NCBI GenBank assembly: GCA_965224085.1
Contig: CBDCYI010000009.1
Coordinates: 352,001 to 416,000 of the forward strand
Length of the DNA stretch: 64,000 bases
Origin: Candidatus Marinacidobacterales bacterium
GTDB taxonomy: Bacteria; Acidobacteriota; Vicinamibacteria; Marinacidobacterales; SMYC01
Direction of reading: 5' to 3'
The position numbers were made by a program, and so were the translations under genes. The notes beneath the pieces are model-generated. The model saw nothing but the letters and a program-made list of their open reading frames with translations. It made no database searches and was not told the DNA's origin. Every line of letters starts with the position of its first letter. Position 1 is the first letter of the stretch. Shown in pieces: positions 9,503 to 14,754 of this stretch.

Positions 9503-11527
9503 ATGAACATCCGAATTCTTGCCACCTTGTCACTTTTCGCCATCGGGAGCGGCGCGTTTGCCGCCTCCGAGTCCAACCGTCTTACCGTCGATCGCTATCT
9601 GGATTGGGAAGACGTCGCGCGTCCCACGCTTTCACCCGATGGCCGCCAAGTTCTCTACGAACGGCGGTGGGTGGACGCCGTCAACGACCGCTGGGAATCC
9701 GCGCTTTGGATCATGGAGGCCGACGGATCCCGGAACCGCTTCCTCGTCAAAGGCTCGTCCGCACGCTGGTCGCCTGATGGGACGCGCATTGCTTTTCTTG
9801 CTGAAGGCGAGCCCGAAGGCACGCAGCTTTTCGTCCGCTGGATGGACGCCGAAGGCGCGGTGAGCCAGGTGACGCGGGTGCGCGAGACACCGTCCAACAT
9901 TTCGTGGTCGCCCGACGGGGGCTCCCTCGCGTTCCAGATGGTCGTACCGCCCGAGAAGGACGGGCGCTGGAGCATCGACATGCCGAAGCCGCCCGAAGGC
10001 GCCGAGTGGACGCGTCCTCCCAAGATTGTCGAGCGGCTCGATTACCGCCGCGACCGCATCGGCTACTTCCCTGCCGGGTTCCGGCACCTCTTTGTTGTCG
10101 ACGCCGATGGCGGCACGCCGCACGCCGTCACGGACGGCGACTGGCATCACGACGACTACCGCTTTATGCCCGATGGACGCTCGCTCGTCTTCCGCTCACT
10201 GCGTGTCGACGATGCCGAGCATCAGTGGCGCGAGTCCGAGATCTACAAGGCTGACATCGCTACGGGAGTAATCCAGCAACTTACACGACGCGCTGGGCCC
10301 GATCGCGGTCCGGTCCCCTCACCGGATGGCAGTCACATCGCGTATCTCGGGCACGACATGTCGGACGACACTTACACCGAGGAAGGCCTCTATGTCATGG
10401 CATCGGATGGGTCCGAGCCTTACGTCGTCGCGTCCGAGATGGGTCGGCGCCCGGGCAATCTCGAATGGGCGAAAGACGGAAGCGGTATTTATTTCACTGC
10501 CCAGGTCCAAGGGACGTCGAACTTGTATATCGCGCCTCTCGATGGAACACCGCGCCAAATCACGAGCGGCAACCACATGGTGACCGTGACCGATATCGAG
10601 GCCGGCCGCGCCGTAGGAACGCTGAGCAGCTACGCCGTCCCCAAGAACCTCATCACTTTCGAGCTCGAGAGCCCCGCGGAGTTGGCGACGCTTCACGTGA
10701 CGAATCGCGGCGTTCTCGCGGAAGTGGAGCTCGGAGAAGTCGAAGAGCTCTGGTACGACTCGGTCGACGACCTTCGGATCCATGGATGGATCGTCAAACC
10801 ACCCGATTTCGATCCGAACAAGAAGTACCCGCTCATCCTTCGCATCCATGGGGGCCCGCACTCGATGTATCACGCGGGCTTCGATTTCAAGAATCAGAAC
10901 CACGCGGCCAACGGTTATGTCGTGCTCTATACCAATCCCCGTGGAAGCTCCGGTTATGGCAGCCCTTTCGGCAACGCCATCGAGAACGCCTACCCCGACA
11001 AAGACTATGACGATCTGATGGCCGGCGTCGACGAGATCGTCAGCCGCGGCTACATCGACGAGCGCAACTTGTTCGTTTATGGCGGAAGCGGCGGCGGTGT
11101 CCTCACTTCTTGGATCGTCGGTCACACGAGCCGGTTTACCGCGGCGGTCGCCAAAGCGCCCGTGACCAACTGGCTCAGCTTTGTCGGCACGACGGACGGC
11201 TCTTCGTGGTACCGCAACTTCGACGCGATGCCCTGGGACGATCCGAGCGAGCACTTGAGACGCTCCCCGTTGATGTATGTCGGCAACGTCACCACGCCGA
11301 CCCTTCTCATCACGGGCGAGAAAGATCTGCGAACGCCCATGGAGCAGACAGAGCAGTATTACCGCGCGCTCAAGATGCGTAAGATACCCACGGCCATGAT
11401 CCGGCTCACCGACGGGTGGCACAGCCGAAGCCTCCCGCCCACCAACTTCATGAGGGTCCAGCTCTACCTGAGGAACTGGTTCGAACGCTTCATGGTGACG
11501 GAGGCCACTTCCACAGAGCAACCGTAA
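9503..11527 (+). CDS. S9 family peptidase (acylaminoacyl/dipeptidyl peptidase-like), secreted
   Basis: Propeller repeats, IHGGPH, NPRGSSGYG, GGSGGG nucleophile, GEKDLR, catalytic His in GWH. Confidence 0.93.
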   Translation: MNIRILATLSLFAIGSGAFAASESNRLTVDRYLDWEDVARPTLSPDGRQVLYERRWVDAVNDRWESALWIMEADGSRNRFLVKGSSARWSPDGTRIAFLAEGEPEGTQLFVRWMDAEGAVSQVTRVRETPSNISWSPDGGSLAFQMVVPPEKDGRWSIDMPKPPEGAEWTRPPKIVERLDYRRDRIGYFPAGFRHLFVVDADGGTPHAVTDGDWHHDDYRFMPDGRSLVFRSLRVDDAEHQWRESEIYKADIATGVIQQLTRRAGPDRGPVPSPDGSHIAYLGHDMSDDTYTEEGLYVMASDGSEPYVVASEMGRRPGNLEWAKDGSGIYFTAQVQGTSNLYIAPLDGTPRQITSGNHMVTVTDIEAGRAVGTLSSYAVPKNLITFELESPAELATLHVTNRGVLAEVELGEVEELWYDSVDDLRIHGWIVKPPDFDPNKKYPLILRIHGGPHSMYHAGFDFKNQNHAANGYVVLYTNPRGSSGYGSPFGNAIENAYPDKDYDDLMAGVDEIVSRGYIDERNLFVYGGSGGGVLTSWIVGHTSRFTAAVAKAPVTNWLSFVGTTDGSSWYRNFDAMPWDDPSEHLRRSPLMYVGNVTTPTLLITGEKDLRTPMEQTEQYYRALKMRKIPTAMIRLTDGWHSRSLPPTNFMRVQLYLRNWFERFMVTEATSTEQP

Positions 11528-11679
11528 GCTTCAAGAGGACGCTTCTGAACACGGGTAAGCTGCTCGGCGCGTTCTTGCTTGCTGCCGCCGGCGCGCACGC
11601 GGGTAAAGGTGCGGACGATGAAGCTCTCAAGAAGCTTCCTCGAGCCGAGAGGGTAGCAATCCTCAACGCACAGAGCTGG

Positions 11680-11950
11680 GTCTTCGACATGTTGCAAAAC
11701 GGTGAGGAGAGCTCTTCGCGGAATATGAACTGGGACACCGTTTGGTACTCCCGGGGAAACCAGACCCAGACGGGTTGGGAAGCCGAGATCGTCGTCCCCT
11801 TCAAATCTCTACGGTTCGACGCGCCCGAAGACGGCCGCGAGATCCTGTTCGGCATCGGCTTCAAGCGCAACCTTCCACGGAAGAACGAGGAGACCTATTG
11901 GCCCTTCGTCGGGAATGACTCGACATGGTATCGCCCCGCGGAGATGGGGA
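11680..11950 (+). pseudogene. Internal fragment of a DUF5916/CBM9-like protein
   Basis: NWDTVW...GWEAEIVVPFKSLRF...GIGFKRNLPRKNEETYW; no proper start or end. Confidence 0.6.
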
Positions 11951-12083
11951 CTCCATGGTCTGAAGAACATCCGTCCAGGACGCGCGCTGAGCGTGAAGCT
12001 CAACTATCTCTTCGCGTTTTGAACTGGGTAGCTCTTCAGCAAGTCCACCATGTTTTGGTAGCTGCCGGGTCGGTCTTCGTTCA

Positions 12084-12420
12084 TTACTCCGCAGTAACGA
12101 TGGCGCTTATCCCCGAATCCCCGACGGCACTCGGGTCCGCGCCGAGCTCGAGCAGCATCGCGGCACTTTCCGCGTTTCCGGAATTCACCACGTCACGAAG
12201 TCTTTCGTTCAAGTTCGATGCCGCCAGCGGGGGCACGCGCCGCGCTTGTCGAGAAGGGCGAGGCTTTCTTTCGCGCCCCATGAAAGCGCCGTTTCGAACG
12301 GAGCGAAGTCACCGTCAGGTCCCTCCGCAAGTGGGCTGACGAACGCGCAGAGCGCAGCCCGTTCGTCCGCGCCAACGTCGATGAAACGCGCACCGACACG
12401 AACCCACGCCTCGGAGGAAA
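12084..12420 (-). pseudogene. Degraded remnant with PilZ-like and ankyrin-like segments
   Basis: VGARFIDVGADERAALCAFV (PilZ tail-like) and GNAESAAMLLELGADPSA (ankyrin-like) in different frames. Confidence 0.35.
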
Positions 12421-12576
12421 GACGGAGATCCACACGCTTTACGGCAGTTCTCAAATCCGCTCTTTCGTCAAGTGGACTTTTGGCCAAACGAGAAACGGAC
12501 CGGCCGTCAAGCCAGCTCGAGGCCTTCACATCTGTGTTTGACGCTTGTCGATGTGACCACTAGGTTAACTTGAGGC

Positions 12577-12969
12577 ATGGGACGTGAGTTGCGGAACTTG
12601 AGCGGTCAACCCGACCGCGACCTCGCGCCTCTAGTGGCCGACATTACAAAGCACGAAACACTCGAAGACGTTTTTCGATGGGTGCGAAGCCTCGGTATCC
12701 ATGACGGCACTGAGAATCTCATCAAGCAGGATGAGTTCACCCACGATGCGATTTTTCCCTATCGTGACAGGCTTTACGTCGTGTATGGCGTGACGTGACT
12801 CGGAGCCGTAACGGCCGTCTCCGTGTGGGACCATCGGCCGTCAGCAGAAGAAATCTTAGCGGATCGATTGACGCAAGGTTGGGAGCCCAGCGCATCGCTT
12901 CTCGTCGATGGCGAGCGCGTGCTCGGATACGCTAGCTGCCTGGTGGATACGGATCACTCCCCGAAATAG
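12577..12969 (+). CDS. Putative selenoprotein of unknown function (130 aa, Sec at residue 74)
   Basis: GAGG RBS and ATG; in-frame TGA at 12796-12798, then 56 open codons (LGAVTAVSVWDHRPSAEEILADRLTQGW...GYASC) to TAG; SECIS-like hairpin directly 3' of the TGA. Confidence 0.7.
12811..12841 (+). promoter_or_regulatory. Putative bacterial SECIS hairpin
   Basis: Lower stem ACGGCCG/CGGCCGT, upper stem TCTC/GGGA, apical loop CGTGT starting 24 nt after the UGA. Confidence 0.62.
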
Positions 12970-12994
12970 TGACTAGAAAGCGGGTACGCCGAGC

Positions 12995-13828
12995 TCACTC
13001 CCGCGGAAGCAAGCTCACTTGGAGGCCCGCGCCACCCGGAGTGAAAATCGGAGAGAGGGCAAACCGGGTGTCGCCATAGCCAAGGGTTACCGTGCGGCCC
13101 GCTAGAAAGCCGACGGCGGCGCCGAAGACGACATCACTCAGGAAGTGCTGGTTCTCACTCAAACGAGACGCCGCCACGTAGCCCGCCACGCCATAAGCGG
13201 GCAAGCCGACCTTCCATCCGTAGCGCCTCTGCAGCACCGTCGCGGTGGCAAAGGCGCCAGAGGAATGTCCGGATGGGAAGGACCGCGTGTTGCTCTCGTC
13301 CGGACGCGTCCGCCCAACGCTGTATTTGAGTATTTGCGTCATGGCCTGGCTCAAGATCTGGGCCCGAACCAGATCGCGGCCGAGAGCTTCGATCTCCGGA
13401 TCGGAGACGATTTTGCCGATGCCAAACGTCACGAAGGCGCCGCCCACTTGAACGAGGCTCGATCCCAGTACTTCACCGGCCTCGAAGGCAGTATCCGTTC
13501 CCGATCCATCGAGACCCTCTGTGTTCAATCCACTCGTCTGTACGGCTTGGTCGAAGGGCTTGGCCACGGCGGCGGCACCGAGCCCTGCACCTAGAATCAG
13601 CAGGGTCTCTTTGGACGTGAAGACGGTACGAAAGTCCAAAGCGATTTGGCGGTAGAGTCGCGGCGCGGGAGGGGCGCTTTCCGCAACCCATGAGGGGTCC
13701 AGCTTGTCGTCCCAAAAGCCAGGGCCGGGCGCGAAGAACTTGTCTTTCGCTTTGGATTCCGCGAGCAGGATCGGCCCGGTGCCGAGGATCGATACGAGCG
13801 CAAGGAGAGTGATTCTCGTGTTACTCAT
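12995..13828 (-). CDS. PAP2 family phosphatase
   Basis: K.SVGRTRP, SFPSGH and SRLSENQHFLSDV motifs. Confidence 0.9.
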   Translation of the reverse strand: MSNTRITLLALVSILGTGPILLAESKAKDKFFAPGPGFWDDKLDPSWVAESAPPAPRLYRQIALDFRTVFTSKETLLILGAGLGAAAVAKPFDQAVQTSGLNTEGLDGSGTDTAFEAGEVLGSSLVQVGGAFVTFGIGKIVSDPEIEALGRDLVRAQILSQAMTQILKYSVGRTRPDESNTRSFPSGHSSGAFATATVLQRRYGWKVGLPAYGVAGYVAASRLSENQHFLSDVVFGAAVGFLAGRTVTLGYGDTRFALSPIFTPGGAGLQVSLLPRE

Positions 13829-14213: not shown

Positions 14214-14754
14214 TGTCTCTTCCGGGGATGGTCGAAACCCCTCGCCTTTAGGCGAAGAGAAGATCGTGGTATTGTGGTCGCGTGCGTCACTACAGGCACG
14301 GAGCGCACACGAAAACGGACCTAAAAGCGCACATCGTTTGGATACCGAAATATCGTAAAAAGGTTTTGATCGGTCCAGTAGCGGTTCGTGTGCGCGATCT
14401 GATTCGTCAGATCGCGATGGAACATGAGCTGCACATAATCTCGGGTAAGGTTGCACGCGACCACGTCCACGTGTTCGTATCCTACCGACCACACCAGGAC
14501 CTTGAGTACGATCGTGCAGTGGCTAAAAGGAATAAGCTCCCGAGTACTCCTTCAGGAGTTTGCTCACCTGAGGAAGAAGTTTTGGGGCCGGCACTTCTGG
14601 GCCCGAGGATATCTGGCGGTGAGTTCAGGAAGCATAACGGACGAGATGGTAAAGGAGCACATAGACTCCCAGGATGGCGAGCCTCTTCACGACGACAGTC
14701 AATTTCCAATTGACAGCCCTTGAAGCCACCGCCTTCTAGGCGGTGGTTGTTCAC
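14214..14754 (+). mobile_element. IS200/IS605 family element, tnpA only
   Basis: Left hairpin TCGCCTTTAGGCGA preceded by AAAC, with target TTAG at 14210-14213; right hairpin CCACCGCCTTCTAGGCGGTGG preceded by GAAG, ending TCAC. Confidence 0.88.
14282..14723 (+). pseudogene. tnpA: Y1 HUH transposase, frameshifted
   Basis: HIVWIPKYR, DHVH, LKG.SSR, FWARGY; +1 frameshift near 14500; YIxxQ reads HIDSQ. Confidence 0.88.

Follow-up and report, generated by a model that had tools for sequence, protein, structure and literature searches.

The stretch of DNA analyzed here, called the window throughout, comprises 64,000 nucleotides (nt) of the genome of a Candidatus Marinacidobacterales bacterium of the phylum Acidobacteriota (GenBank assembly GCA_965224085.1, contig CBDCYI010000009.1, positions 352,001 to 416,000 of the forward strand). 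Its positions 12577 to 12969 hold what is very probably a genuine selenoprotein gene, encoding a protein with one selenocysteine (Sec, U) and belonging to a family that is not catalogued. On the forward strand an ATG at 12577 begins a reading frame, which reaches a TGA at 12796-12798, the 74th codon and the only in-frame TGA, and which then stays open for 56 further codons up to a TAG at 12967-12969. The read-through product has 130 residues, with the sequence ...LYVVYGVT-U-LGAVTAVSVWDHRPS... around the TGA and with a sole Cys, C121, within the segment GYASC. The part 3' of the TGA has no ATG, and its single listed start is a GTG at 12823. An open reading frame (ORF) that breaks off at a TGA in mid-frame, the 56 open codons that follow with no ATG of their own, and the only Cys in GYASC had all been described in the initial annotation, and the coordinates proved correct. 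The features on which the argument rests are as follows.

12577 to 12969, forward strand: predicted selenoprotein coding sequence, 130 residues, Sec at residue 74, stop codon TAG at 12967-12969.
12727 to 12747, forward strand: codons of the motif Q-D-E-F-T-H-D, residues 51-57, followed through 85 sequences.
12796 to 12798, forward strand: UGA predicted to be read as Sec, codon and residue 74, located at the turn T-U-L-G that links two beta strands.
12811 to 12841, forward strand: the whole hairpin as folded, its 7-bp lower stem formed by 12811-12817 and 12835-12841 and topped by the conserved apical part.
12817 to 12831, forward strand: core of the putative selenocysteine insertion sequence (SECIS), type B, a helix of 5 base pairs (bp; 12817-12821 with 12827-12831) with the apical loop CGUGU at 12822-12826.
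12937 to 12939, forward strand: codon of Cys121, 47 residues after Sec, a candidate resolving cysteine.

Four public runs, belonging to three studies, have contigs with the window stretch; three of the runs carry the whole stretch with zero differences, and in the fourth it is split over two pieces, with a single letter different. The TGA is therefore no assembly slip. The four runs may hold the same strain as the window, or they may be the window's source. Taken alone the window sequence stands at chance level, and the support for recoding therefore comes from the comparison with relatives.

A search for relatives in 60 other genomes returned a homologue in three of them, at 44-46% identity, each with exactly one in-frame TGA and with a match that extends across it. 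A sample of the phylum gave strong matches in 15 of 400 other genomes, 12 with one TGA and three without; the two weak matches of a single genome, G364 (expectation value (E) 1.5e-6 for one, which has a TAA in frame, and 8.4e-4 for the other), were left out of the counts. In all, 15 further genomes of the phylum carry TGA at one shared alignment column, which in the three stop-free copies holds Cys, encoded by TGC or TGT. The context of the column in the genome copies is [TS]-T-U-L-G, with U-N-G in one. Metagenomes were scanned with a pattern that demanded TGA, TGC or TGT at the column, T before it, and L, G, W, P and E-x-L at set spacings after it. At least 120 stretches matched, and 80 of them were made into loci. 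Among the matches listed, 77 of these 80 loci are family members by hidden Markov model (80-164 bits), and all 77 have TGA at the column, while the three matches with TGT are not of the family.

The sequence beyond the TGA behaves as coding sequence. A further stop between codons -23 and +47 occurs in none of the 88 distinct Sec-form sequences, and nucleotide diversity 3' of the TGA in the same set is 0.29, 0.24 and 0.58 at codon positions 1, 2 and 3. With diversity biased in this way toward the third position, the downstream frame carries the signature of translation, and we infer that the gene is translated. The family genes from genomes also use TGA as their own stop codon in 10 of 19 cases; since TGA ends these genes in the same genomes, the genetic code is not reassigned. 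The 15 genomes with TGA and the three with Cys, together with the metagenome loci and the database proteins described below, thus show what the initial annotation had asked for as support: TGA or Cys aligns at residue 74 with both flanks conserved, and the downstream frame is conserved as well.

The database proteins carry the same break in another form. The set comprised 126 proteins (124 representatives from an exhaustive HMMER search and two from a word-indexed search), aligned to the family profile. Among them, 28 are N-terminal fragments that end exactly one residue before the Sec column, with no profile column missing in any, and 68 are C-terminal fragments that begin after it, so that 96 of the 126 are truncated halves around this column. 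Twelve proteins span the column with Cys. Two C-terminal fragments reach the column, one with Q and one with C, and one protein of 541 residues with eight matched stretches (P0075) was left outside the classes. The source names of these relatives read "hypothetical protein" only. From the window alone it had been supposed that annotation usually renders the family wrongly, as one short ORF or two, and the 28 and 68 fragments agree with this.

The second line of evidence is the hairpin after the UGA, for which positions are counted from the U of UGA as 1. Residue 82 divides the 88 distinct Sec forms into Ala82 (type A, 59 sequences), Ser82 (type B, 27 sequences, including the window) and Val82 (two sequences, in which the type A helix persists with a G-U pair), and the type A and type B registers are mutually exclusive. 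In type A, with the peptide T-A-V-A-V, positions 15-20 pair with 25-30 around a 4-nt loop at positions 21-24 (R-G-U-Y), which reads GGUC in 41 of 59 sequences and AGUU in 18. Four of its six pairs are set by the amino acids; the remaining pairs link third-codon positions that are free to vary. The combinations at these places are predominantly complementary: columns 21 and 36 show GC 27 times, CG 16, UG 2, AU 1 and GU 1 (12 unpaired), columns 24 and 33 show GC 56 times, AU 2 and GU 1, and the loop-closing columns 27 and 30 show GC 41 times and AU 18, with none unpaired. Pairing fills 95.9% of type A cells, compared with 86.8% in shuffles (0 of 500 reach the observed value) and 22-75% in slid registers. 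In type B, with the peptide V-S-V-W-D, positions 22-26 pair with 32-36 around the loop N-G-U-N-U at 27-31, and the helix is lengthened by a pair 21-37 in 22 of 27 sequences; 95.7% of cells are paired and the element is near-invariant. Column 30, a third-codon position in the type B stem, is C in 27 of 27 sequences, and columns 33 and 36, the third-codon positions of the loop, vary. RNAalifold finds the core of both helices unprompted, the type B helix (27 sequences) falling at 12817-12831 of the window. The loop G-U is encoded in a Val codon in either type: that of Val81 for type A and that of Val83 for type B.

The window's own element is of type B, its loop G-U being supplied by the codon of Val83. 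A published model of bacterial SECIS elements asks for a loop of 3-9 nt, a stem of at least 4 bp, a spacing of 16-37 nt, a G within the first two loop positions and a minimum free energy of -7.5 kcal/mol or lower (PMC13188914, section 5). With its CGUGU loop, 5-bp stem, 23-nt spacing and -15.6 kcal/mol, the window element satisfies this model. The energy is that of the 31-nt hairpin alone, for which z is -1.9 (10 of 200 shuffles as stable). RNAfold on the window draws a 3-bp upper stem with the loop GUGUG, and the loop CGUGU is that of the family-consensus register. A scan of 12500-13000 against Rfam gave no match at E up to 10. The initial annotation had proposed a hairpin 3' of the UGA with a 7-bp lower stem and the loop CGUGU. 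Both are present (ACGGCCG at 12811-12817 pairs with CGGCCGU at 12835-12841), but the lower stem is not kept in relatives: it is absent from the type B consensus, in which only the 5-bp upper helix is conserved.

The host has the machinery that such a gene needs. In the window genome (6.87 Mb in 12 contigs) selA, selB and selD were matched at 550, 365 and 280 bits, all over the curated cut-offs and all free of internal stops, and tRNA-Sec was found at 74 bits (threshold 47 bits) with the anticodon TCA. The genes are dispersed: selA and selD lie on contig C5 and tRNA-Sec on contig C4, while selB lies on the window's own contig (G000:C9:725496-727388), about 309 kb past the window end and about 361 kb beyond the selenoprotein gene. 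In the phylum sample selA is present in 12 of 12 TGA carriers; it is also found in genomes G012 and G060. Genome G055, at 72% completeness, yielded selB (328 bits) but no selA. The expected Sec machinery is therefore in place, and each TGA carrier tested has selA or selB.

From this evidence we propose, with a probability of roughly 0.88, that the locus is one 130-residue selenoprotein gene in which UGA codon 74 is recoded through the ordinary bacterial route of SelB and a hairpin. On this proposal the UGA would be translated as Sec when SelB with Sec-tRNA(Sec) is recruited by the small hairpin that lies within the coding sequence directly after the codon. The hairpin would offer the G-U dinucleotide of its apical loop to SelB, and the family would use two alternative registers for it, type A in T-A-V-A-V and type B in V-S-V-W-D. 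The protein would be cytoplasmic.

Several observations weigh against this reading. By our own rough estimate, at 57-60% GC an open frame of 56 codons is no rarity. In the window, the 55 nt that follow the UGA fold at -17.2 kcal/mol, compared with -17.06 in dinucleotide shuffles (z -0.05; 93 of 200 as stable), and among the public runs listed there is no RNA run that carries the window stretch. In the metagenome set, conservation at the positions demanded by the pattern is partly by construction, because the pattern required five downstream residues; this does not apply to the remaining positions. The finding of selA in 12 of 12 carriers agrees with the proposal but is weak evidence, because selA is above the cut-off in 297 of 401 sampled Acidobacteriota genomes, a tally that includes three genomes flagged as unpublished, with no carrier among them.

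The hairpin evidence has its own weak points. Randomization of synonymous codons gives a modest effect (observed -17.8 against -16.1 kcal/mol, mean z -0.60; z -0.02 to -0.10 in three control windows), and the amino-acid sequence dictates much of each helix. The type B consensus energy from RNAalifold is only -4.4 kcal/mol, and two double changes in 162 type B cells are too few to show covariation. On a weakly supported tree drawn from 177 nt beyond the element, the loop switches state 10 times or more; with relatedness controlled, three independent pairs fall on supported branches, all in the same direction, which is not significant (p 0.25, sign test). The switch between G-C and A-U in the loop could partly follow the GC content of the genomes. 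GC content would not account for the fact that only complementary combinations of purine and pyrimidine occur. Covariation, which the initial annotation had named as a check, is thus seen as compensatory third-codon changes in type A, but it is not upheld by the tree-controlled comparison or by the near-invariant type B. The corresponding region of the Cys forms folds at -7.6 kcal/mol (three sequences, one family), an unfair control because the codon usage set against it came from GC-richer genes.

The residues at the Sec column of the remaining spanning database proteins also count against the proposal: W in four (P0004, P0008, P0017, P0026), S in four, R in three (P0016, P0027, P0112), and G (P0011), P, A and V in one each. 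Trp, Arg and Gly each have a codon that differs from TGA by a single base, or are assigned to TGA in alternative code tables, and the W and G at the column may be TGA translated under another table by the gene caller. The initial annotation had held that homologues with Trp or Arg at this position would speak against Sec. Cys does alternate with Sec at residue 74, in the genomes and in the database, but some full-length database relatives have W, S, R, G, P, A or V.

The AlphaFold2 model of the read-through product, built from an 85-sequence alignment, has a mean predicted local distance difference test score (pLDDT) of 91.5 and a predicted template modeling score (pTM) of 0.85. The first half comprises a strand (4-8), two helices (13-23 and 29-38) and two strands (48-50 and 55-62); the second half comprises strands 66-73 and 77-84, a helix (90-99), strands 106-109 and 112-115, and a final helix (118-127). 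Sec74 sits in the model in the tight turn T-U-L-G that joins strands 66-73 and 77-84. If strands 55-62, 66-73 and 77-84 form the usual meander, strand 55-62 would begin beside the point where strand 66-73 ends, and the motif QDE[FY]THD would lie next to Sec74. Within this motif D52 is invariant, and Q51, E53 and D57 are each retained in 90% or more of the 85 sequences. The fold has no relative in the searches made. Foldseek gave nothing against the PDB at E up to 0.001 (best E 0.13, with a template modeling score of at most 0.35) and no match among viral models, a profile search of all PDB sequences reached only E 1.3, the ESM Atlas returned no usable match with a natural Cys homologue as query, and PADLOC and PHROGs gave nothing below E 0.017.

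We put at about even odds the view that a redox enzyme here uses Sec74 as its catalytic nucleophile and works through a selenenylsulfide cycle, perhaps with Cys121 as the partner of Sec74. A Cys at U+47, as for a resolving partner, is present in 84 of the 88 distinct Sec forms, and redox enzymes make up most known selenoproteins (PMC13188914, section 7). The Cys forms weigh against the partnership: an equivalent of Cys121 is found in only five of 11 representatives (alignment A1) and is missing from six. A non-redox role, with Sec74 as a metal or metalloid ligand or as the nucleophile of a hydrolase or transferase with neighboring Asp, Glu and His, seems to us the less likely reading, and it is the alternative that fares best. 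The lack of a CxxU or UxxC motif and of a thioredoxin-like fold match would suit it, as would the invariant D52, the near-invariant Q51, E53 and D57 and the residue H56, which the model places on the neighboring strand, the Ser found at the Sec/Cys column in four representatives, and the six Cys forms without Cys121. What speaks for the redox role, namely the Cys at +47 in nearly all Sec forms and the prevalence of redox enzymes among selenoproteins, speaks against this one.

That the UGA is decoded as one of the standard amino acids (Trp, Cys, Gly or Arg), through near-cognate suppression or an altered code, is improbable by a wide margin. The W (4), R (3) and G (1) of the database column speak for it; they could be real sense codons, or TGA translated under a different table. 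It is opposed by the use of TGA as terminator in 10 of 19 family genes and by selA, selB and selD matches without internal stops. The residue that alternates with TGA in the genomes is Cys, a hairpin of the SECIS type with a G-U loop follows the codon, and the full Sec machinery is present. Slightly weaker still is the view that the TGA is a true stop, ending a 73-residue protein and leaving a dead remnant or a separate ORF downstream: gene callers annotate the family so (28 N-terminal and 68 C-terminal fragments), the window hairpin is at chance level on its own sequence, and no RNA run is among the public runs listed as carrying the stretch, but a remnant would not keep 47 or more stop-free codons in 88 of 88 sequences with variation biased to the third position, the codon is always TGA and never TAA or TAG (77 of 77 metagenome copies, among the matches listed, and 15 of 15 genome copies), the Cys-form homologues are continuous, and the window's only start for a separate ORF, the GTG at 12823, lies 8 codons into a predicted beta strand.

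The selenoprotein gene proposed here falls outside the catalogued families. Pfam and NCBIfam gave no match to the window protein at E up to 1, and only scattered noise with 85 family members. A 2026 review of prokaryotic selenoproteomes lists 119 families or subfamilies with a domain identifier and a Sec motif (PMC13188914, Table 1), and the T-U-L-G motif is none of the 119; the comparison by family model covers Pfam and NCBIfam, and a few rows of that table carry cd or PTHR identifiers. In agreement with the initial annotation, then, the protein matches no known selenoprotein family by these models or by its motif. The available portion of the BSepDB paper (2026) counts 111 known families, and the deep-Sep study, in the sections at hand, reports no new selenoprotein in its one Acidobacteriota genome (PMC12013277). 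No published description of the family was found in the literature, supplementary family lists aside.

Comparison with known systems places the family more closely. It resembles the bacterial SECIS of the bSECISearch model, whose prototype is the hairpin of E. coli fdhF, in having a stem-loop within the coding sequence immediately 3' of the UGA with a small G-U loop; the family loops begin 20-26 nt past the UGA codon and occupy positions 21-24 or 27-31, counted from the U. The loop of fdhF has the sequence GGUC, as do 41 of the 59 type A elements, at nearly the same distance from the UGA. Unlike the prototype, the family has two exclusive registers, tied to Ala82 or Ser82 and to different Val codons. 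With the thioredoxin-fold selenoproteins (Trx, Grx, Prx, GPx-like, SelW-like) it shares the single Sec, the Cys homologues, the small size and a possible resolving Cys. It departs from them in having no CxxU, UxxC or TxxU motif and no Cys within three residues of U74, and in that the model places Sec in a beta-hairpin turn rather than at a helix N-terminus, with no such match by Foldseek. As far as the available parts of the sources go, the hypothetical proteins DG, DW and DF (deep-Sep), GOS_B and GOS_C are alike in being small, with one in-frame UGA, Cys homologues at the same column and a hairpin just behind the UGA, in a host that has Sec machinery, and they rest on the same kind of evidence (PMC12013277, PMC13188914). 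Those proteins have NCBIfam or Pfam accessions (PMC13188914, Table 1), and both the models and the motif set the present family apart from them.

A joint reading can be put together from these parts: a selenoenzyme family of new fold, abundant in soil Acidobacteriota, almost all in the Sec form, whose active site, with Sec in a beta-turn by the motif QDE[FY]THD, is unlike the thioredoxin-type sites of most selenoproteins, and whose two interchangeable SECIS registers constrain the peptide. We regard its chances as evenly balanced; if it is true, the family would plainly exemplify how a signal in RNA can shape the sequence of a protein. The paired registers show the range of SECIS position and its constraint on the coding sequence. 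A confident model without structural or sequence relative points to a selenium site in a protein that is not of thioredoxin fold. Annotation routinely misses bacterial selenoproteins, and the family, with 96 of 126 entries as truncated halves, is an example; in the portions available, the two 2026 resources (PMC13188914, Table 1; BSepDB paper) do not appear to include it. It adds a Sec-dominant family to Acidobacteriota, and selenium use in soils may be under-counted, because selA is so widespread in the sampled genomes of this phylum.

Among the groups sampled, the family is centered on Acidobacteriota and is mostly in the Sec form. Two other phyla, that of a Verrucomicrobiae genome and that of an Acidimicrobiaceae genome, were sampled with 251 genomes each, and neither sample gave a family match. 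The distribution is patchy: the gene was seen in 0 of 4 genomes from the window's own genus and in 1 of 18 from its taxonomic family. The selenoprotein gene stands alone in the window, and a comparison of 950 flanking ORFs from 96 loci gave no conserved neighbor or operon partner (largest BLAST cluster, 7 loci). The surrounding features are these.

9503 to 11527, forward strand: peptidase S9 gene, upstream of the selenoprotein gene.
11416 to 12339, forward strand: ORF without Pfam match, one of three in the gap of about 1 kb at 11530-12570, to which no gene was assigned.
12084 to 12281, reverse strand: ORF without Pfam match, same gap.
12209 to 12529, reverse strand: ORF without Pfam match, same gap.
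12995 to 13828, convergent: PAP2 phosphatase gene, downstream of the selenoprotein gene.
14282 to 14713: IS200-like Y1 transposase ORF (Pfam Y1_Tnp, E 1.1e-16, profile positions 2-65 of 121 only).

A second ORF, at 14451-14723 in another frame, overlaps the IS200-like ORF, 1.3 kb from the selenoprotein gene, and the pair (14282-14723) is possibly a frame-shifted copy of an insertion sequence. The GC content of 12500-12999 is 0.568, compared with 0.59-0.64 in most neighboring 500-nt windows. Because of this lower GC, the patchy distribution and the nearby transposase, the selenoprotein gene could have been acquired horizontally.

In another Acidobacteriota genome a Sec-form copy with the context ..STT-U-FG.. 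(locus L181, 1250-1720; G459:C16, about 890526-890995) has two frame changes, the second of them in a G run just past the Sec codon. This copy is either an assembly error or a decaying copy.

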